Notes under the pieces: model-generated
Told to the model about the DNA's origin: nothing
Seen by the model: the letters and a program-made list of their open reading frames with translations, nothing else
Databases searched by the model: none
Assembly (NCBI GenBank): GCA_024654415.1
Contig: JANLHQ010000011.1
Coordinates: 1 to 35,817 of the forward strand
From: Candidatus Azambacteria bacterium
Lineage (GTDB): Bacteria > Patescibacteriota > Minisyncoccia > GWC2-36-17 > WO2-46-25
Reading direction: 5' to 3'
DNA: 35,817 nt
Translations under genes and position numbers: made by a program
Shown: positions 10,671 through 18,957 of the stretch, piece after piece
How positions within the stretch are numbered: position 1 is the first letter of the stretch
How the letters are laid out: each line of letters begins with the position of its first letter

Positions 10671-11879
10671 TTAAATCTTCGGAACAGCTCCATACGCCCC
10701 GGCGATATATTTTGAATAATAATTATCATCAGAACGTACATCAGATACCTCATCTAAGCGCCATGCCTCGCTTATACCGTTCTCATTCTTTTCGACCAAT
10801 ACAATTTGATACTTATCTAACTTACTTAAGAGCATATGACTATGGGTACTTAAGAGAAGCTGTGCGTTTTTAGGATTCGTCTCCGGCTGTATAAACAAGT
10901 CAAACAACGCCATAACCATTTCAGGGTGTAGATTTACATCAAATTCGTCAACAATAGCAATACTTCCTTTTTCAAGGGCCGCAAGAATACTCTTCAAAAG
11001 TACAAACAATTGCTTTGTTCCAAATGACTCATATTGAACAGGTAGATACAACGTCTGCCCATTAAACATGTGGGATGCTCGGACATTAAGAGAAAAACCG
11101 TTTTCCTTTTTTTCTTTTTTTATCTCAAATCCACTTAGTCCCAAGTCAAATCGGCAAAGCAATTTTTCTGCTTCCTGTTTAAGAGCACTGTTTTCACTAA
11201 AGAAATCAAAAGCTTCGCCAAGTTGTGCGATTGAATTTGGTAGCAAATGGTCTCCGATCCAACCAGCCTCAATGACATTTGTTTCTATTTGTCCCCAATA
11301 TGTTGCTATCGTTTGACTTTCCGCATGATTAAGTCGAGCGGCAGTACCAATAACGCTCGCATTAGAACGCAAAAGATTTTCAAACCCTTTTGGCAAATCA
11401 AAATTATCTCCCTCAAAATCATATCGATTTTCTTTCACATTCCAGTTTCGAGAAAAAATCTTCTTGGTAGATTTTTTCTCTTTTGCAAAACTAGTGAGCT
11501 TTAGATCTTCGCTTAGAATCTTTTCTTTGGTGATAGTAAAAGCATAGGTATACACTTTTCCATCGACCTCAAAAACCACCGATAAGTCTGTCGGCTCATT
11601 CTTTTCGTCCCCAAACGCAAACGGCTGAACGACAATAGGATTCTCTGGCTTCATATTGAACGAATCAATAATCAACCATTTCAAAAACGGTAAAACTTTT
11701 AGCAAATTTGTTTTACCGGATGCGTTAGGTCCTATAACTGTTTCGACCTTCGAGAGTCGTACACCTGACTTGGCTACAAAATAGCCATTATTCTCTGGGG
11801 CATTACCATTTACCTCGAAAACAAGCGATGTTTCCTCACCAAAGGAATAGAAGTTTTTACATGAAATTGAATGAATCAT
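10671..11879 (-). CDS. ABC/SMC-like AAA ATPase (AAA_15/AAA_21, COG1106-type)
   Basis: Walker A GPNASGKT, signature-like ESFGTKQ, Walker B IAIVDEFDVNLHP, H-loop LSTHS, and a long helical insert between Walker A and the signature. Confidence 0.8.
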   Translation of the reverse strand: MIHSISCKNFYSFGEETSLVFEVNGNAPENNGYFVAKSGVRLSKVETVIGPNASGKTNLLKVLPFLKWLIIDSFNMKPENPIVVQPFAFGDEKNEPTDLSVVFEVDGKVYTYAFTITKEKILSEDLKLTSFAKEKKSTKKIFSRNWNVKENRYDFEGDNFDLPKGFENLLRSNASVIGTAARLNHAESQTIATYWGQIETNVIEAGWIGDHLLPNSIAQLGEAFDFFSENSALKQEAEKLLCRFDLGLSGFEIKKEKKENGFSLNVRASHMFNGQTLYLPVQYESFGTKQLFVLLKSILAALEKGSIAIVDEFDVNLHPEMVMALFDLFIQPETNPKNAQLLLSTHSHMLLSKLDKYQIVLVEKNENGISEAWRLDEVSDVRSDDNYYSKYIAGAYGAVPKI

Positions 11880-11918
11880 ATTTTTATATGTTTTACCTTT
11901 ATTACCTCGACCTATCTC

Positions 11919-11947
11919 ATACTAGCAGATAATAGATAGAATTGCAA
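11919..11947 (-). promoter_or_regulatory. sigma-70-like promoter of the ATPase cassette
   Basis: On the minus strand: TTGCAA (11947-11942), 17-nt spacer, TAGTAT (11924-11919), about 40 nt upstream of ATG 11879. Confidence 0.5.
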
Positions 11948-11951
11948 GCTT

Positions 11952-11971
11952 TTCTACAATAATTTGTAGAA
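11952..11971. promoter_or_regulatory. perfect 8-4-8 palindrome abutting the -35 box (operator-like)
   Basis: TTCTACAA-TAAT-TTGTAGAA, located 5 nt upstream of the -35 hexamer of the ATPase promoter. Confidence 0.45.
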
Positions 11972-12053
11972 AGTGGAGAAATATAGGTATTTTCAAGCTA
12001 TTTTACCTCCTCGGACTAGCCTGATTCTTAAGTTATACACACCCCTATAAGAT

Positions 12054-13037
12054 TCAGCTTTCTAATGCCCTGATTATTTCTTTGGTAACATGCCACATAA
12101 CGACGGGTGCGACAGCATTTCCCAAAGCTTTATAATTCGTCGTTCGTGATCCGGGAAGCACAAAAGAATCCGGAAAAGATTGTATGCGAGCTACCTCAAG
12201 GGGGGTGAACATTCTATACCTGCCATTTACCTGCAAAACCGGGTCGGTGCTGTTTAAGCTTACTTTTGCAAGATGTGCTCCGACTGTATTGCTTGGTTCA
12301 TGTAATTTTTGCACCCGGCCCTTGTTCATGGTCTTTGAGTGTTTGGTTGCGGACATACCGTTGACAGCTTTTGCGCTGAAATAAAATTTTTCCTCGACTT
12401 CATGGTTGGGTAAAACAATCATAGAAAGTGGCACCGGATTGCTTTCGGTTACCGGCTTTGGAAATTCGAAGCGGTCATACGTTTTCTTATTCTTGAATCC
12501 TACAATAAACACACGTTCGCGTTTTTGCGGAACGCCGTAATGGGAAGCATTCAGAACCTTATATTTGATATGATAGCCAGCTCGCTCGAATTCTTTTATG
12601 ATTAGCGGAAAAGCTTCTCCTTTGTTAGCCGACAGTAATCCTTTCACATTCTCGGCTACGAATACGGACGGTTTTTTGTCTTTAAGAATCCTGCACATTT
12701 CGAAAAACAATTTTCCTCTATCATCTTTATATCCGAGGCGGCGAGGATTCTGCGCCACTACCGAAAAAGATTGGCAAGGAAACCCTCCGGTCAAAATATC
12801 GTGATCTGGAACATCTTTTGATTTCAGTTCTTTTATATCTCTTACATCAATTTTCAGTGAAAAATTCGCATTATAAACATCGCATATCGATTTATCGAAA
12901 TCCGTGGCATAAACTGTTTCCACCGGATGTTTTTTAAATCTTTTGCCCAAGTACGCGAAGCCGCCCTCCGCCCCTAGGTCCATCCCTCCGCATCCACTAA
13001 ACAAGGAAACTATTTTGTATTTTTTGGTTATTTTCAT
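12054..13037 (-). CDS. DNA (cytosine-5)-methyltransferase
   Basis: Motif I LFSGCGGMDLG, motif IV GGFPCQSFS, motif VI ENVKGLL, motif VIII QKRERVFIVG, motif X GNAVAPVV. The start overlaps the upstream stop (ATGA, 13034-13037). Confidence 0.9.
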   Translation of the reverse strand: MKITKKYKIVSLFSGCGGMDLGAEGGFAYLGKRFKKHPVETVYATDFDKSICDVYNANFSLKIDVRDIKELKSKDVPDHDILTGGFPCQSFSVVAQNPRRLGYKDDRGKLFFEMCRILKDKKPSVFVAENVKGLLSANKGEAFPLIIKEFERAGYHIKYKVLNASHYGVPQKRERVFIVGFKNKKTYDRFEFPKPVTESNPVPLSMIVLPNHEVEEKFYFSAKAVNGMSATKHSKTMNKGRVQKLHEPSNTVGAHLAKVSLNSTDPVLQVNGRYRMFTPLEVARIQSFPDSFVLPGSRTTNYKALGNAVAPVVMWHVTKEIIRALES

Positions 13038-14464
13038 ACGAGTAATTTCTCCCAGTATCCTGATTTATCTGAGTACCTGATATCCGCTCCGTCACGTGGA
13101 CTCATATCTAGCGTGTCAGATTTGTATTGGCCAACAGGATCTTGGATCAGGAACAGATTTACATCCTTGGACGAAATCATTAATCTATAAACAAAGTAGG
13201 TTTTTCTCAAACTATTGGCCGCACTCCATTCGCTCGGCGTCATATGAAAGTTACTCGTCGCGAGCTTGCCTCGACTGATGCTTGTCTTGACCTCGACATA
13301 CCTGCGAATATCACCGATTCCTTCGAAAGACGAAATATCATATCCGACTGCGAATGTCTCCGGAATTTTCTTTATAAGATGCAATAAGTCTTCGCGCTTA
13401 AGCGTTACCATCCTGATTTTCTCGTGTTCGATCACGATTGCTTCACCTACATCTCCCACCTCTTTGGTTTTTACTTGTTCACCCTCTCTGATCATCTGCA
13501 CTTTCATCAAAACTTCTTTAATGAATGCGCTCGTATCCCTATCTTCAGTGGTTTCGCTGGCTTCTTCGATAATTGAAAGGATGTTTGCTTCAAAGATACT
13601 TGAATCAAGCTTGTTGTTTACATGATGGAACCAATCTTGCTGAGTGGATACCACGTCAGCGAGTGATAGATCGCTCTTGGTGTACAAGGGCTGATAGGGT
13701 GCGAAATATGAGCCGTCGTTGATAAAAGCCTGTATCGTTTCAAGATTTACCGTGTTTAAATAATACTGATAGTTCTGCCTAAGTCTTACCAGATCGGCGA
13801 GCTCCATGTAATCGAGCACATCTCCTGCATAGCGGATAACATCTCCTTGAGAATCATATTCAATATCGTTTTTCCTGTTGGCCAAGATAAGCTCCGCTGT
13901 TTCCTTCGGAGAACGATTGTCCCTTGTAACCCTTAAGTCGTTAAAAATACAGTGGGTGGTTTCAGCTTTCGTCAAACCAAATTTTTCCGACTCGCCGACC
14001 AGTTTCTTGCCTTCAAGCATTACCTGCATAAGATATTTTGCCGGCTTGAATCTAATGCCGGCTTTTATGCATTCAAGAGTTTCGTGGGGTTTCAAATGAC
14101 CTCCGGGATACTGGAAGTAGAAAAGAAAATATCGAAAAAATTCAATAAGGTCCTGCGATTCTGAAAGCAGAAGAGCCATGCGTCCAGGTTGGGATATATC
14201 CCCGTCGTGTTCGATCAGCCCGAATAAGGACGAAATCTCAGTACGCCAATTATTGATTGTCTTTAATTCTTTTGAAAAATTGCCGGGGTAGAACTTGATG
14301 GTGTTATTTAATTTCTGCTTGAAAGTTTCGTGTTCCTCTGGCTTGAGCTTTGCAATTTCTGTCGCCATATAGAAAAGCACGTTCTCGACATCGTTTTTGA
14401 AACGAGGACGGATGTGATGTAGTCTGAAAAAATATTCTTTTGGTGTTTTGTAAATACTTTTCAT
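13034..14464 (-). CDS. putative restriction endonuclease (N-terminal recognition region plus C-terminal PD-(D/E)xK / DUF3883-like domain)
   Basis: Sandwiched between two m5C MTase genes with 4-nt ATGA overlaps on both sides. The C-terminal GYDISS...RYVEVKTS...FHMTPSEW...YFVYRL matches the D...E-V-K nuclease pattern of DUF3883-type domains. Confidence 0.6.
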   Translation of the reverse strand: MKSIYKTPKEYFFRLHHIRPRFKNDVENVLFYMATEIAKLKPEEHETFKQKLNNTIKFYPGNFSKELKTINNWRTEISSLFGLIEHDGDISQPGRMALLLSESQDLIEFFRYFLFYFQYPGGHLKPHETLECIKAGIRFKPAKYLMQVMLEGKKLVGESEKFGLTKAETTHCIFNDLRVTRDNRSPKETAELILANRKNDIEYDSQGDVIRYAGDVLDYMELADLVRLRQNYQYYLNTVNLETIQAFINDGSYFAPYQPLYTKSDLSLADVVSTQQDWFHHVNNKLDSSIFEANILSIIEEASETTEDRDTSAFIKEVLMKVQMIREGEQVKTKEVGDVGEAIVIEHEKIRMVTLKREDLLHLIKKIPETFAVGYDISSFEGIGDIRRYVEVKTSISRGKLATSNFHMTPSEWSAANSLRKTYFVYRLMISSKDVNLFLIQDPVGQYKSDTLDMSPRDGADIRYSDKSGYWEKLLV

Positions 14465-15513
14465 ATCTTTTTATTTAAAGCTTTAGCCAGGGCTTTCGCT
14501 ATCTGTTCTGCCATAAGCGGCGGAACCGCGTTTCCAACTTGCTTGTATTGGCTGGTTTTGGAACCCATGAACACGAAATCATCGGGGAATGATTGCAGTC
14601 TAGCAGACTCCCTAACCGTGGGTATCCGGTTCCATTTGTAATGGAAATGGTGCCTATGTCCGGTATCGATGGTAAAGCTTGGTTTGTTACTGCTGTATCG
14701 GGTCCAAGCTATATTGACACGGCGGGTATTTTTTAGATGATCCGGCAAATCTTTGTAATTGCCCCCGTCAGGCACAAGCGCAATGATGTCTGTTGTTTTT
14801 TGATCATGATTTGTTATCTCATGGTTAAAAATTTTATTAGACTTTTTTCTCATTTTCGCCTGATAATCCGAAACTGGTTTTTTCTTATTCTCTGTTCCAT
14901 CCTTAACTGATCCTTCGGGAAGATCGGAAATAGCCTGTCCTGCGGTTGCTTTAGATTCAGGATCCGAAAAGGTTGGTTCGGGGAAAATAAAGCTGTTATG
15001 ACCAAGGGTTCCCACAAATACGACACGCCTGCGGTTTTGCGGAACGCCGTAATCAGAAGCTAGCATGACTTTGTATTTGACCTCATAGCCAAGAGCTGTG
15101 AAATCCTTCAGGATTTTATTCTTTATTTTGCCGCCAGACATCGCTACAAGATTCGGAACATTCTCAAGGACGAATGCCTTCGGTCTCAACTGCTTCACTG
15201 TTTTAACAAAGCTGGTATAGAGTCCGTTACGAGGGTCATTTGGATTCCTTTTCCCTGAAATTGAAAATCCTTGACATGGTGGTCCACCGACCACTACATC
15301 GATTTTGCCAGTAATTTTTTCTAAATTCTTGGGATCGAAGTTTCCTAAATCCATCAGAATGCCTTTTGATCCGGGATGATTCCTCTCAAAAGTTATAAGT
15401 GAGTCTTTCCAGTTATCTATTCCTGCTACCACGTCAAAACCAGCTCGTACAAAACCGTAGGAAAGACCACCACAACCTGAAAATAGATCTAGAACTTTTA
15501 ATTTATTCTTCAT
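14461..15513 (-). CDS. DNA (cytosine-5)-methyltransferase
   Basis: Motif I LFSGCGGLSYGF, motif IV GGPPCQGFS, motif VI ENVPNLV, motif VIII QNRRRVVFVG, motif X GNAVPPLMA. Confidence 0.9.
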   Translation of the reverse strand: MKNKLKVLDLFSGCGGLSYGFVRAGFDVVAGIDNWKDSLITFERNHPGSKGILMDLGNFDPKNLEKITGKIDVVVGGPPCQGFSISGKRNPNDPRNGLYTSFVKTVKQLRPKAFVLENVPNLVAMSGGKIKNKILKDFTALGYEVKYKVMLASDYGVPQNRRRVVFVGTLGHNSFIFPEPTFSDPESKATAGQAISDLPEGSVKDGTENKKKPVSDYQAKMRKKSNKIFNHEITNHDQKTTDIIALVPDGGNYKDLPDHLKNTRRVNIAWTRYSSNKPSFTIDTGHRHHFHYKWNRIPTVRESARLQSFPDDFVFMGSKTSQYKQVGNAVPPLMAEQIAKALAKALNKKI

Positions 15514-16165
15514 GTGTGTGCAACGTTACTTCCTTAAAGCCGCTTTGGGTAATAATTACATGGCCTGACAATCGGAATCCTAATATGTTTGCCGCCTCCA
15601 ATAATTGCCAAGTAATTTTTTTATCTTCGGCCGATGGTTCAAGGCTCCCGGAAGGGTGATTATGTGCAATTGTGATTGATGATGCTGAAAGCGAAATCGC
15701 TGGTTCAAATATCTCGCGTGGGTGGACAAGACTGGAGTTGAGAGTCCCGATAGAAATGATGCGTCTTTCAATGATTTTATTTTTCGTGTCTAGATAAAAA
15801 ACGGCCAAATGTTCCTTTTTGGAATCATAAAAATCAGCGCACAGTTTCCAGATGTCTTCAGGGGATTGGACTACGATGCCTTTCTTCTCATTCAGTCGGC
15901 CACTTAGCTCAATTAAAGCTAATATCTGGGAAATCTTAGCTCGACCTAGGCCATGTATTTTTTTAAAGTCACCTCTTGAAATATTTGCCGATCCCATACT
16001 CTCTATTTTGCGTAAAATCTCTCGACTCAAAGCTAAAACATTTTTTCCTTTAATGCCTGAGCCAAGAAGGATCGCCAAAAGTTCCGAATCAGAAAGCCGC
16101 ATCGGTCCGTATTTTTCGAGTTTTTCTCGCGGTCTATCAACTTTTGGTAAATCTTTTATTTTCAT
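15503..16165 (-). CDS. radC: RadC-like JAB/MPN-domain protein (UPF0758)
   Basis: N-terminal RPREKL..YG...LSDSELLAILLGSG plus an HhH region. JAMM motif HNHPSGSLEPSAED. The stop overlaps the MTase start by 11 nt. Confidence 0.85.
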   Translation of the reverse strand: MKIKDLPKVDRPREKLEKYGPMRLSDSELLAILLGSGIKGKNVLALSREILRKIESMGSANISRGDFKKIHGLGRAKISQILALIELSGRLNEKKGIVVQSPEDIWKLCADFYDSKKEHLAVFYLDTKNKIIERRIISIGTLNSSLVHPREIFEPAISLSASSITIAHNHPSGSLEPSAEDKKITWQLLEAANILGFRLSGHVIITQSGFKEVTLHTHEE

Positions 16166-16167
16166 AA

Positions 16168-16356
16168 CTATTTTTTGATTGCCTCGTAGTCTCCCTCGTT
16201 GCCAATTACCCGGATGTAGTCCTCACAACCATCAACCGCAATAGTCTTACACTTGCAATAAGTCATCTTTTTCCGAGTATCACTAAAAATCTCATCAGCG
16301 CATTTCTTGCATTTGATGTAGATTTCTTTTTTGGCATTGTTGGCGATTTCCTTCAT
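16168..16356 (-). CDS. small Cys-rich zinc-ribbon-like protein, hypothetical
   Basis: MKEIANNAKKEIYIKCKKCADEI...YCKCKTIAVDGCEDY (CxxC ... CxC ... C). ATG 16356 lies 4 nt after the Fic stop. The longer track ORF (to 16407) would overlap the Fic gene. Confidence 0.5.
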   Translation of the reverse strand: MKEIANNAKKEIYIKCKKCADEIFSDTRKKMTYCKCKTIAVDGCEDYIRVIGNEGDYEAIKK

Positions 16357-16360
16357 AAAT

Positions 16361-17422
16361 TTATAGTTTTCTATAGCTTGTTGATCGGCCTTGCCCAATG
16401 CGCTCAATCTTTTTGAGTCGCATCAATTTATCGATTGCCTGCCTGACAGTCGGATAAGCGACTTTCGTCTGTTCGGAAATCTCACGCGGCGTAGCACTTT
16501 CAACTTTTTGGAGATAATTCCAAACAGCGAGCTGTTTTTGTGTGAGCAATCGTTCAATATTTTCTTTGGACAAAAGATCGATGGCCATCTCCGATTGTTT
16601 TAAGAAAATGGTCAAGAAGAAATCCAACCACGGAATGATGGTTTCATGATCTGTCTTAAATGTTTTTTGGCTCTGACGAAGCACAAGATAATAATCTGGC
16701 TTATTATCTTCAACAAATTTCTCATGCGAAACATAGGGCATATACAAGTATCCCTCTTTCAATAAAAGAAGGTTAGTGAGTACGCGGCTAAGACGGCCGT
16801 TGCCGTCTTGAAATGGATGGATCTGCAAAAATTCAACAAGAAAGTTGCCCACAATAAGAAGTGGATGATAACTCTTCTCTTCAAGAGCTTTTTGGGTCCA
16901 CTCAACCAATTCCAGCATTTCTTTGGGAGCAAGATATGCCGGCGTGGTGTCAAAAAGCACGCCAATGGATTCTCCGGCGGCGTTTATCATCTGTACCTGA
17001 TTTTCTCTTTTTTTGTAATCGCCTCGATGGCCTTCGTCCTTCTTTACATACTTCAGGAGTTCTTTATGGAAGTGTTTGATAGTGCTTTCATTGAATTTCA
17101 AACTTTTCCAAGAATTAAAAATATTCTCAAGCAATTCGTAATATCCTTTGACTTCCTGTTTGTCCCGATCAGTAAATTTTTGGATATCAATACCCCGCAT
17201 GAGCTTCTCCACATCTTCATCAGAGAGCCTTGCCCCCTCAATACGAGTTGATGCTCCAGTTGAAGTAATCAAAACAGACCGTTTGAGACGACCTAATACC
17301 TGAGACGAGAGTTGTGCTCCGGCGATCCATTGCCCCTTTAACTCATCAATTCTTGCTATTTTTGACCAGATTTCAGCCGGTAAATGCTCTATCCGCTGGT
17401 CTAATTTGATGTTATTTGCCAT
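16361..17422 (-). CDS. Fic-family protein (class II, N-terminal inhibitory helix) with C-terminal winged-helix domain
   Basis: Fic motif HPFQDGNGRLSR. Autoinhibitory (S/T)xxxE(G/N) motif STRIEG in the N-terminal part. The C-terminal LQKVESATPREISEQTKVAYPTVRQAIDKLMRLKKIERIGQGRSTSY is wHTH-like. ATG 17422 is preferred over the TTG at 17443 used in the track. Confidence 0.85.
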   Translation of the reverse strand: MANNIKLDQRIEHLPAEIWSKIARIDELKGQWIAGAQLSSQVLGRLKRSVLITSTGASTRIEGARLSDEDVEKLMRGIDIQKFTDRDKQEVKGYYELLENIFNSWKSLKFNESTIKHFHKELLKYVKKDEGHRGDYKKRENQVQMINAAGESIGVLFDTTPAYLAPKEMLELVEWTQKALEEKSYHPLLIVGNFLVEFLQIHPFQDGNGRLSRVLTNLLLLKEGYLYMPYVSHEKFVEDNKPDYYLVLRQSQKTFKTDHETIIPWLDFFLTIFLKQSEMAIDLLSKENIERLLTQKQLAVWNYLQKVESATPREISEQTKVAYPTVRQAIDKLMRLKKIERIGQGRSTSYRKL

Positions 17423-17593
17423 ATATTTAATCCGATATATCAACTATAGCGGATTATAACGAATAAATCAAACTCGCCGCTTATTATTAGTTAGGCCAAC
17501 AAGTTGTAATAAGGACACCCGTATTACGACTTGGCAACAAAGTAGGCTAGTTTGCTTACATCTGGCAGAGCAATGTAAACAAACTTAAAGAAG

Positions 17594-17660: not shown

Positions 17661-17712
17661 AAGGGCTCGCAATCGATCACTTAACGGTGAAAGATTGCGA
17701 GCCCTTTTGTTT
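17661..17712 (+). terminator. long hairpin followed by a T-rich stretch
   Basis: AAGGGCTCGCAATC (17661-17674) pairs with GATTGCGAGCCCTT (17693-17706). The loop contains a TCAC/GTGA mini-stem. TTGTTTAGTTGTTT follows. Confidence 0.5.
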
Positions 17713-17887
17713 AGTTGTTTAGATAAAAATGATCATGAATATGAAAATGGTCTCAATGGAGACGAGCTACAAATTTGATATTGTTGCAACGAAAGACGCG
17801 GTCCGAGATGCTTTTACAACATTCGAACCGCCAAAAGAGCCCGTCAATAAAGGATTAACACCAGCTTTCGCTGATGTTAATCCTATC

Positions 17888-17919
17888 TGGCTCCGCGGGT
17901 AGGATTCGCCTCTCCCTAC
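17888..17919 (-). pseudogene. decayed copy of the tRNA-Asn 3' end (T-arm, acceptor strand, CCA)
   Basis: Minus strand reads GTAGG-GAGAGGCGAAT-CCTAC-CCGCGGA-G-CCA. 19 nt (17890-17908) are identical to 18038-18056 of the intact tRNA. The T-loop is disrupted and there is no matching 5' half. Confidence 0.6.
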
Positions 17920-18003
17920 GGTCGAAATGCACCATTTTTCATTCAATCGCCTTGCTCTTGAGAAAAATGGGCACCTTCGGTTCGAATCCCACCCACAGAA
18001 AAA

Positions 18004-18037
18004 CAGAAAACCCCTTAAAAGGGGTTTTCTGTTTTTT
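18004..18037 (-). terminator. bidirectional rho-independent terminator directly after the tRNA 3' end
   Basis: CAGAAAACCCC (18004-18014) / GGGGTTTTCTG (18021-18031) with a 6-nt loop, and T-runs in both orientations. Confidence 0.8.
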
Positions 18038-18076
18038 GCTCCGCGGGTAGGATTCGAACCTACGACCAAGCGATTA

Positions 18077-18644
18077 CACTTGTTTGGTAAGTGGACTATA
18101 TCATCTCCTTCTTCGTTAGAAGTTAAGGAGTCGGGCGCTTATGAGAGATTATTGTTGGGACTCACTCTCTAGTCTCTACACCTTCCTTGAAACTAAAACC
18201 CTTCAAGGCTTGGCTCGGTATTAGATTAACTTCTCCTTCACCGAATTCACCCGATTTTTCAATCCTGATTTCTCAGGAAAGCTGCCTGAAGCATGGATCT
18301 CTGCGTGGCAATTGCTACACAAAAGAATACACTTATCTAATTCTTTTCTTACCCTTTCCCAAGATTGTGTATATCCTTTTGACGCAACTCCGAAATCCTT
18401 GCCGCCAGGTTCTTTATGATGAAAAACTAAAGCAGTTTCACATCTATTGTAGCCACATTTCTGACAAGCTCTTCCCTTATATTCAAGAGACATTTTCTTT
18501 ATATCCTTTCGTCTCTTGTCTACAAAGTACTTAAGCTTGCAGTTTACGCTACAGAACCTGCGTCGTGGTTTCATAATAGTGTTAACGCAAACATGATAAT
18601 TACATTTCATGATTACATTATACCCTATTATGAGCCAAACTTTG
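18077..18644 (-). other. group I intron (IC3-like) in the anticodon loop
   Basis: Minus strand contains AATTCGGTGAA, CCGAGCCAAGC (18218-18208) and GAAGGTGTAGAGACTAGA (18185-18168). I recognise these as the conserved P4, P6 and P7 core strings of the Azoarcus and cyanobacterial tRNA introns. The proposed boundaries obey the rules that the 5' exon ends in U and the intron ends in G. Confidence 0.7.
18221..18610 (-). CDS. HNH homing endonuclease encoded within the intron
   Basis: 129 aa starting at ATG 18610 (MKCNYHVC...). Contains CQKCGY...LVFHHKEP...LLCSNCHAEIH, an HNH motif with flanking Cys pairs. The longer track ORF (to 18709) runs through the tRNA 5' exon and is an artefact. Confidence 0.75.
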   Translation of the reverse strand: MKCNYHVCVNTIMKPRRRFCSVNCKLKYFVDKRRKDIKKMSLEYKGRACQKCGYNRCETALVFHHKEPGGKDFGVASKGYTQSWERVRKELDKCILLCSNCHAEIHASGSFPEKSGLKNRVNSVKEKLI

Positions 18645-18957
18645 ACAGTCGCCTGCGCTACCACTGCGCCACCGCGGAATATGTTTTCCAATGAACTAAC
18701 GCTCCTCAATCGTAATTGAGGAGCGTATGTCTATGGTGTCAGATACACCACACACATACGCTACCCATATGCACTCCCACAGCGCCCCTCCGTCGCCTTG
18801 CGCTTTCACGCAGGCGGCGGAGTGCTCTATGGTAATCTCCCGGTACCGGTGTTGCCCGACATTGCGGACAATCGGCTACCGAAAAACAAGAATGGAAAGA
18901 ACAAAGCATATCAATTATATACTTTTTTCGCAACCCCGCGCAACAGAGAACCTTTCC

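Follow-up and report, generated by a model that had tools for sequence, protein, structure and literature searches.

Group I introns interrupt the anticodon loops of bacterial tRNAs, and the classical list of host genes comprises tRNA-Leu, tRNA-fMet, tRNA-Ile, and tRNA-Arg. In 1992, Reinhold-Hurek and Shub reportedly described IC3 group I introns in the pre-tRNA-Ile(CAU) of Azoarcus and the pre-tRNA-Arg(CCU) of Agrobacterium, small elements that lie in the anticodon loop, follow a 5' exon ending in U, and have a P2 helix capped by a GNRA loop. The tRNA-Leu(UAA) intron of cyanobacteria and plastids, which is inserted at 34/35, has an ordinary P9 and no open reading frame (ORF). Some tRNA introns encode a homing endonuclease, one of which is I-Ssp6803I, an enzyme of the PD-(D/E)XK type. 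Encoded by the anticodon-loop group I intron in the tRNA-fMet gene of Synechocystis PCC 6803, it reportedly has its target in that gene's anticodon region (Bonocora and Shub, 2001, cited in PMC3984707). Splicing of the Anabaena tRNA-Leu(UAA) intron reportedly relies on pairing between the two exons within the anticodon stem and not on P10 (Zaug et al., 1993). We analyzed a 35,817-nt stretch of DNA from a Candidatus Azambacteria bacterium (assembly GCA_024654415.1, contig JANLHQ010000011.1, positions 1 to 35,817 of the forward strand), called the window below, in which a tRNA-Asn(GUU) gene is split between positions 35 and 36 by an IC3-like, probably mobile group I intron that carries an HNH endonuclease gene. 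We put the probability of this mechanism as a whole, in a bacterium of the candidate phyla radiation (CPR)/Patescibacteria type, at about 85%.

By analogy, the element seems to function as other IC3 introns of bacterial tRNAs do (those of Azoarcus Ile, Agrobacterium Arg, and cyanobacterial Leu and fMet). Five features set it apart from them: its host tRNA, its insertion at 35/36, the HNH class of its endonuclease, an additional hairpin that separates P7 from P3', and a pseudoknot that replaces P9 and P5. Set beside the Azoarcus and Agrobacterium introns, which are inserted at 36/37, it also has an ORF in the P1 loop (L1) and a minimal P5, and the pseudoknot, which joins the 5' and 3' ends of the intron, stands where those introns have a GAAA-capped P9. 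Four core strings (AAUUCGG.GAA, CCGAGCCAAGC, GAAGGUGUAGAGACUAGA, and AUAGUCC) are shared with the Azoarcus intron. The Synechocystis fMet intron resembles the element in its anticodon-loop position and in having an endonuclease gene of its own, but here the enzyme is of the HNH class, and the host tRNA and the phylum are different. The logic of the tRNA-Leu(UAA) intron would be the same in the window, where P10 is absent.

All tRNA, intron, and ORF features of the window lie on the minus strand, of which we examined 17850-18760; the coordinates below are on this strand unless stated otherwise. The 5' exon (18645..18678; 34 nt, tRNA positions 1-35) reads TCCGCGGTGGCGCAGTGGTAGCGCAGGCGACTGT from 18678 to 18645 and supplies the acceptor strand TCCGCGG, the D arm, the anticodon-stem strand GGCGA, and the loop nucleotides CTGT. 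The 3' exon (18039..18076; 38 nt, positions 36-73) reads TAATCGCTTGGTCGTAGGTTCGAATCCTACCCGCGGAG from 18076 to 18039; it begins with TAATCGCT (TAA, then the stem strand TCGCT), closes with CCGCGGA, and ends at G73; a CCA tail is not encoded. A hairpin with a T-run terminator (17999..18031) follows immediately 3' of the tRNA. When the joined exons were given to ARAGORN, it returned a 73-nt tRNA-Asn(GTT) with one G-U pair and zero mismatches. A preliminary description of this DNA had claimed that the two segments build a flawless cloverleaf with an Asn-type acceptor (U1-A72/G73), that the unspliced gene reads as Asp(GTC), and that tRNA scanners would miss or misassign it, and all of these claims held. 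Default ARAGORN reported zero tRNAs across the whole 35.8-kb window; with long introns permitted, it detected the gene and labeled it Asp(GTC), and in the same mode it labeled the split genes of relatives Thr, Gly, or Tyr. The Asn-type ends U1...A72-G73 recur in 70 of 70 homologous exon pairs, which run TCC/TCT...GGAG/AGAG. Every element in that description was found at the place it gave, and the intron-split gene is the sole tRNA-Asn within the window.

The segment between the exons (18077..18644; 568 nt) begins with CAAAG and ends with AAGTG, of which the last nucleotide, 18077, is the terminal G (omega-G). It had been identified beforehand as a group I intron, and the Rfam covariance model for these introns (RF00028) matches 18298-18076 over its full length, with 50.1 bits against a gathering score of 50 (E = 5e-10). 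This is the only Rfam match across the window. The score is borderline because P9 and P5 are reduced and an insertion sits between P7 and P3'.

The position of the 5' splice site follows from the pairing of the exon with an internal guide. The 5' strand of P1 (18644..18648) consists of exon nucleotides C32, U33, G34, and U35 and the first intron nucleotide, C+1, and it pairs as CUGU/C with the guide GGCAG (18282..18286, read in the ORF as the codons Gly-Ser), which leaves a U35-G wobble at the splice site; RNAalifold predicts the helix too. GCAGC lies slightly upstream of P2 in all 70 introns analyzed, a set that comprises the distinct introns in which the guide sequence could be located, and its GCAG pairs with C32-U35. 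Within the window's own subfamily, AGGCAGC is invariant. The adjoining pair, between intron +1 and guide -1, is C-G in 32 introns, G-C in 24, A-T in 5, and T-A in 2, which makes 63 of 70 Watson-Crick. Because of the guide pairing and this covarying pair, we place the splice site after U35 (18645), with GUU as the resulting anticodon, in agreement with the U35/U36 junction proposed earlier. The omega-G at 18077 has counterparts in all five of the distinct loci found by way of the protein, a route that involved no search pattern; their introns likewise end in G. A meaningful P10 was not found: only a U36-G wobble would be possible, and the guide position available for it covaries with intron +1 and not with the exon.

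A second junction also places a U at the end of the exon and a G at the end of the intron, as the rule demands. Splicing at the alternative U33/G pair would produce the loop CUUGUAA and thus a tRNA-Thr(UGU), a product that ARAGORN accepts as Thr(TGT) and that would sit well with the Thr label given to some relatives alongside Gly and Tyr. We rejected this junction on the P1 covariation and on the unconserved -3 position. A guide for ...GACU is absent, whereas GCAG pairs with C32-U35, with its wobble at U35 and a neighboring pair that covaries with intron +1; the G at -3 that the U33 junction needs is unconserved, since the last three nucleotides of relatives are GTG, CTG, ATG, GGG, TTG, or GCG. 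The Asn-type ends shared by all 70 exon sets speak against a tRNA-Thr as well. So does the anticodon arm, which matches that of E. coli tRNA-Asn. A tRNA-Thr made in this way is therefore highly improbable.

The elements of a P3/P7-pseudoknot core (P3-P4-P6 and P7-P8) are present in the window intron. The catalytic core occupies 18131..18254 and then 18094..18130, the latter containing P8, J8/7, and the 3' strand of P7. P2 is a hairpin, CCTGA-GAAA-TCAGG (18264..18277), with a GNRA loop and compensatory changes in 5 of 5 pairs. P3 (18254-18248 with 18137-18131), P4 (18244-18239 with 18220-18215), P6 (18208-18202 with 18191-18185), and P8 (18130-18125 with 18110-18105, followed by J8/7 before the P7 3' strand) all show compensatory changes, as do the P9.0-like stem described below and the anticodon stem. 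P5 is minimal (18234-18232 with 18225-18223) and was found by RNAalifold. P7 (GACTA, 18174-18170, with TAGTC, 18098-18094) is invariant. We judged these helices on an alignment (A1, made with MAFFT) of 19 introns of the window's subfamily from which the L1 insert had been removed. The assigned helices contain 91% standard pairs, a value that falls to 33-42% when the 3' partners are slid by 1-3 columns, and changes on both sides occur in 33 of 59 pairs; 0 of 500 shuffles reached the observed pairing or covariation. RNAalifold independently recovered the anticodon stem, P1, P2, P3, P4, P5, P6, and P9.0.

The preliminary description had assigned the intron to class IC3. The compact core, which has neither P2.1 nor P5abc, the single P2 capped by a GNRA loop (CCUGA-GAAA-UCAGG), the simple P5, and the junction sequences accord with that class. 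Two of its defining traits do not appear: there is no GNRA P9 hairpin docking into a P5 receptor, and the stretch between P7 and P3', free of helices in IC3, contains an extra 27-nt hairpin, P7.1 (18169-18143; stem 18169-18165 with 18147-18143). For this reason, we call the core IC3-like rather than IC3; Rfam offers a single group I model. Other members of the subfamily have two hairpins between P7 and P3'. The 17-nt loop of P7.1 (18164-18148), TGAGTCCCAACAATAAT, is almost invariant in the window intron and in five relatives (L001, L002, L006, L041, and L147), and its stem covaries; loops resembling TGAGTCCCAACAATAAT are also present in introns L023 and L124, which belong to the standard type described below. 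The near-invariant loop probably makes a tertiary contact. One subfamily intron of 486 nt (L168, metagenome contig Ga0209542_10088066) has no HNH ORF; its extra length is a large P6 insertion, not an L1 insertion, and its hairpins between P7 and P3' are longer.

The place of P9 is taken by a different structure. The 3' tail of the intron (18077..18093) forms a P9.0-like stem, CACTT/AAGTG (18093-18089 with 18081-18077), and the loop of this stem contains CCAAAC (18082..18087, intron nt -11 to -6), which is complementary to GTTTGG near the 5' end of the intron (18635..18640, intron nt 5-10, within the P1 loop). A GNRA-capped P9 was found in 0 of 23 introns of the window's subfamily, as against 37 of 47 standard-type tRNA-Asn introns, where the P9 hairpin is flanked by CAC...GUG, and the P4-P5 span is 25-28 nt in the subfamily (n = 23), compared with a median of 38 nt in the standard type. 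Standard-type introns (such as L023, L017, and L012, the last from WWE3 RAAC2), which score 58-102 bits with RF00028, are inserted in the same gene at the same junction, use the same guide GCAG, and in their ORF-bearing members have the same HNH family in L1; they differ in keeping the GNRA P9, in their longer P5, and in having the other N-terminal type of the HNH protein.

Scored with a dedicated script, because alignment A1 leaves the 5' strands out of register, the two pseudoknot strands form 5-7 contiguous Watson-Crick pairs in every one of the 18 distinct introns of the subfamily. The sequence of the helix varies among them, in about 15 versions including GTTTGG/CCAAAC (the window), TTGGC/GCCAA, GCTAACT/AGTTAGC, GCTGA/TCAGC, CTGGC/GCCAG, GCTAGT/ACTAGC, TCTAAC/GTTAGA, and ATGGC/GCCAT. 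In a control with shuffled tails, a single sequence reached 5 pairs with a probability of 0.08-0.31. The repeated complementarity thus indicates that the helix exists throughout the subfamily. Its distance is 4 nt to the 5' splice site and 3-7 nt to the terminal G, and we infer that it holds both splice sites together alongside the anticodon stem; it would thereby offset the absence of P10 and the long span of P1.

These features may define a structural subclass of tRNA group I introns that has gone undescribed, in which a pseudoknot replaces P9 and the P5 receptor, clamps the splice sites with the anticodon stem in place of P10, and tolerates in L1 a 340-nt endonuclease gene that also encodes the guide and P2-P5. 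If that is so, position 35/36 of tRNA-Asn would in addition be a major homing site across phyla that is unreported in the literature. We hold this combined proposal tentatively, at somewhat less than even odds, and regard the pseudoknot subclass as most likely the new part of the finding.

The HNH ORF (18221..18610; ATG at 18610, TAA at 18223-18221) encodes 129 amino acids and lies in the P1 loop, spanning intron nt 35 to 424. Its length and its start about 35 nt into the intron had been given correctly in the preliminary description; the stop, placed there 3 nt from CCGAGCC, is 2 nt away. That account also had the tail of the ORF overlapping P3-P5. The overlap is real and extends further than was said, in that the last 22 codons cover the guide (the 3' strand of P1), P2, P3, J3/4, and P4 before ending in the 5' strand of P5. 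HNH families of the PHROG collection match the protein strongly (phrog_2255, 2e-22), and 196 homologs were found at E <= 1e-3. In a set of 46 homologs, C49, C52, H64, H65, C98, N100, C101, H102, and H106 are invariant or nearly so, and the window protein retains 15 of the 15 invariant residues, which include the HH...N...H motif of the beta-beta-alpha-metal type and the predicted zinc-binding cysteines. The AlphaFold model has a mean pLDDT (predicted local distance difference test score) of 84, with residues 114-128 below 50; the part of the protein that overlaps the ribozyme is thus predicted to be disordered. The top Foldseek matches of this model are all HNH domains, and all weak.

The ORF is present in 26 of the 70 tRNA-Asn introns, and all 26 carry it within the P1 loop (between intron nt ~15-40 and the guide), with a stop 16 to 95 nt beyond the guide. 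Its N terminus is of one of two types, Cys-rich or with a YADR helix. In standard-type introns (e.g., L048, L049, L051, L071, and L110), the C terminus of the ORF contains a conserved T-Q-L-P motif whose codons (ACN CAG CTN CC) are formed by the guide and the first part of P2, and this stretch is therefore constrained both as protein and as ribozyme.

A TATAAT box (18617..18622) lies 6 nt upstream of the ATG in the window. Of the 26 ORF-bearing introns, 15 (the window's among them) have a hexamer resembling TATAAT or TATACT, often in the form TGGTATAAT or TGGTATACT with TGG ahead, at a distance of 4-9 nt upstream of the ATG. A scan for consensus promoters detected no full -35/-10 promoter for the tRNA or for the ORF. 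The box is a possible intron-internal promoter that would yield a leaderless mRNA.

A metagenomic allele (L133/L169) has no ORF. In this allele, the exons are identical to those of the window, the ribozyme is 98% identical, and the upstream flank is 83-84% identical; the 343-nt ORF block of the window is replaced by 19 nt, and the L133 intron measures 244 nt. Because a near-identical intron exists without it, the ORF can be regarded as a separate mobile block, and the pattern fits a recent gain or loss of a mobile ORF together with spread of the intron between species.

The protein might nevertheless have another function here and not act, or have ceased to act, as a homing endonuclease for this site; it could be a maturase-like splicing helper or a passenger nuclease with some other target that landed in the P1 loop. 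The two N-terminal types suggest shifting DNA- or RNA-binding modules, and homologs of the protein stand free in phage tRNA clusters. Against this, ORF-less relatives of 200-330 nt retain the full core and give the ribozyme no obvious need for a protein, and in many phyla the HNH clade is tied to a single site of insertion in a single gene; this tie to a single site, combined with the presence or absence of the ORF inside near-identical introns, is the signature of homing. We consider a function other than homing unlikely, though less so than the other alternatives discussed in this work.

The homing-intron mechanism that we favor would run as follows. Upon folding of the precursor, C32-U35 and C+1 would pair with GGCAG about 355 nt downstream to form P1 with its U-G wobble, and the core from P2 to P8 would then assemble, both steps being drawn from the covariation. 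By group I chemistry, guanosine would attack after U35, the terminal G (18077) would enter the G site, and ligation would give the loop CUGUUAA. With no P10, the exons would be aligned by the anticodon stem and by the 6-bp pseudoknot between nt 5-10 and -11 to -6. A -10 box of its own would probably drive transcription of the HNH gene into a leaderless mRNA, translation would continue into the ribozyme as far as the first stop in frame, which is in P5, and the enzyme would cut an intron-less tRNA-Asn gene near the anticodon and thereby drive homing.

We examined the distribution of such introns in two ways. The contigs of four close HNH homologs provided five distinct genomic contexts (L001, L002/3/4, L005, L006, and L007), and in all five the gene reached through the protein is split at the same junction, GACTGT/CA...G/TAATC. 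Two pattern scans, anchored on the 3' strand of P7 and the 3' exon, covered one genome per species and metagenome contigs; the exons were reconstructed by base-pairing rules, and the counts are lower bounds biased by the pattern. Together, these searches found at least 92 loci in which a tRNA with U1...A72-G73 ends is split after CTGT, with at least 70 distinct introns in which the guide could be located. Intron lengths range from ~200 to 670 nt among the matches listed. By their record titles, most of the loci belong to Patescibacteria/CPR (Parcubacteria, Moranbacteria, Uhrbacteria, Kaiserbacteria, Saccharibacteria, Gracilibacteria, Doudnabacteria, Berkelbacteria, Woesebacteria, Daviesbacteria, and WWE3, the complete RAAC2 genome among them), and further hosts are Cyanobacteriota (e.g., Microcoleus), Margulisiibacteriota, Limnocylindria/Chloroflexota, Planctomycetes, and Bdellovibrionota. 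When 18 relatives were scanned with Rfam, RF00028 scored 58-102 bits in 14 of them, and no further intron-bearing genes were detected near their tRNA-Asn loci. The preliminary description had called an ORF-bearing intron in tRNA-Asn(GUU) unusual, which overstates the case given the number of loci: the host is new relative to the classical list and is common in sequence databases.

A 2025 preprint by Nakagawa and colleagues (bioRxiv 10.1101/2025.07.03.662931) is said to treat tRNA group I introns in Patescibacteria; it may already cover the tRNA-Asn family and probably includes at least some of the standard-type introns. CPR tRNAs have been noted in passing to carry group I introns (PMC8172020). 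A literature search on tRNA-Asn and group I introns returned only papers on organelles or otherwise irrelevant ones; Asn goes unmentioned in a review of group I introns in bacteria from 2014, and the tRNAscan-SE 2.0 paper contains only fMet and Ile2 intron cases. We set aside the "group I introns" of 22-49 nt reported in cyanobacterial tRNAs, which are too short for group I and are not in tRNA-Asn (PMC5733544).

Several observations count against the split-gene mechanism. The Rfam match barely exceeds its threshold, the Pfam HNH model scores below its cut-off (19.2 versus 21.4 bits), and neither a sequence search of the PDB nor Foldseek found a close solved structure (best Foldseek E = 0.2). 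P1 is invariant within the subfamily, where covariation is consequently silent on it, and P7, although fully paired, is invariant there too, which makes covariation uninformative for it. The terminal G was part of the pattern with which the scanned loci were found. P1 must form across ~355 nt of coding RNA, and folding may be slower as a result. Splicing and DNA cleavage are both events that we infer. Finally, our view is limited to the window, and a second tRNA-Asn elsewhere in the genome would lie outside it.

Such a second gene is central to the possibility that the locus is a decaying relic, whose intron no longer splices or whose tRNA is unused while an intact tRNA-Asn elsewhere serves the cell. 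The borderline Rfam score would agree with decay, and degenerate copies of the tRNA-Asn 3' end just downstream imply that the locus has been rearranged. The condition of the gene argues otherwise. The exons give a flawless cloverleaf, every core helix is intact, the ORF keeps every invariant residue, and the core is 98% identical to that of a relative whose flanks are only 83-84% identical. In addition, complete CPR genomes have been reported to have group I introns in some tRNAs along with tRNAs for every amino acid (PMC8172020). A relic is, in our judgment, improbable, and a functional split gene remains the preferred explanation.

A functional gene of this kind affects how genomes are read. 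Since default tRNA finders miss it and the intron mode mislabels it, many CPR genomes will appear to have no tRNA-Asn, and this apparent loss distorts estimates of completeness and inferences about decoding. The tRNA-Asn anticodon loop would be a homing site common to many phyla, and an HNH clade that is both intronic and free in phage tRNA clusters offers a system for studying how free-standing endonucleases colonize introns. The ORF-less twin in L133 (244 nt) is a compact natural ribozyme with a terminal pseudoknot in place of a tetraloop-receptor contact.

The distant HNH homologs are free-standing genes in phage tRNA arrays, often beside a tRNA with a GUU anticodon. Free-standing phage homing endonucleases that target tRNA genes have been described: T4 SegB, whose preferred site is in a tRNA-Asn gene, and T5 F-TflI/II/IV (PMC2330249). 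These enzymes lie outside introns, as do the phage homologs of the window's HNH protein, and SegB belongs to the GIY-YIG family. In phage-like contigs L008 (2365-2448), L009/L010 (1864-1949), and L011 (512-597), we observed tRNAs of 84-86 nt that combine a GUU anticodon with a long variable arm (class II shape), an unusual mix, and in each of these the free-standing HNH homolog is 5-52 nt from this tRNA. In Acinetobacter phage vB_AbaM_B09_Aci05 (L176; NC_048080.1), a "tRNA-Val-GTT" (2475-2546) is annotated in a tRNA cluster ~640 nt downstream of the HNH homolog; the label looks wrong, because GTT is an Asn anticodon. Small GIY-YIG ORFs adjoin the intron-bearing tRNA-Asn in two unrelated contexts, L002 (3766-4056; 96 amino acids) and L006 (2692-2943; 83 amino acids), and a second endonuclease family may thus be active at the tRNA-Asn gene.

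Right after the terminator in the window, the 3' end of the tRNA-Asn recurs in two degenerate copies at 17891-17995 (both strands). The first is an exact 18-nt direct repeat, CGAATCCTACCCGCGGAG, in which 17908-17891 equals 18056-18039, within a decayed tRNA-like stretch that has an 11-nt "T loop." The second is inverted and diverged and reads GGTTCGAATCCCACCCACAG on the plus strand at about 17976-17995. Relatives L001 and L169 have no such copies, which resemble scars left by integration events at the 3' end of the tRNA. An Rfam search of 17700-18040 at E <= 1 for a second tRNA or structured RNA gave only spurious microRNA and small RNA matches, which arise from the terminator and the inverted repeat. 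Directly downstream of the tRNA, on the minus strand, is a defense-type gene cluster (10671-17443) that encodes Fic (16361-17443), RadC (15503-16165), two C5 cytosine methylases (14461-15513 and 12054-13037) on either side of a BpuJI-like restriction enzyme (13034-14464), and finally an AAA_21/AbiEii-like ATPase (10671-11879). The similarity between the window and L169 ends at the tRNA, a boundary as expected for an island inserted beside a tRNA gene.

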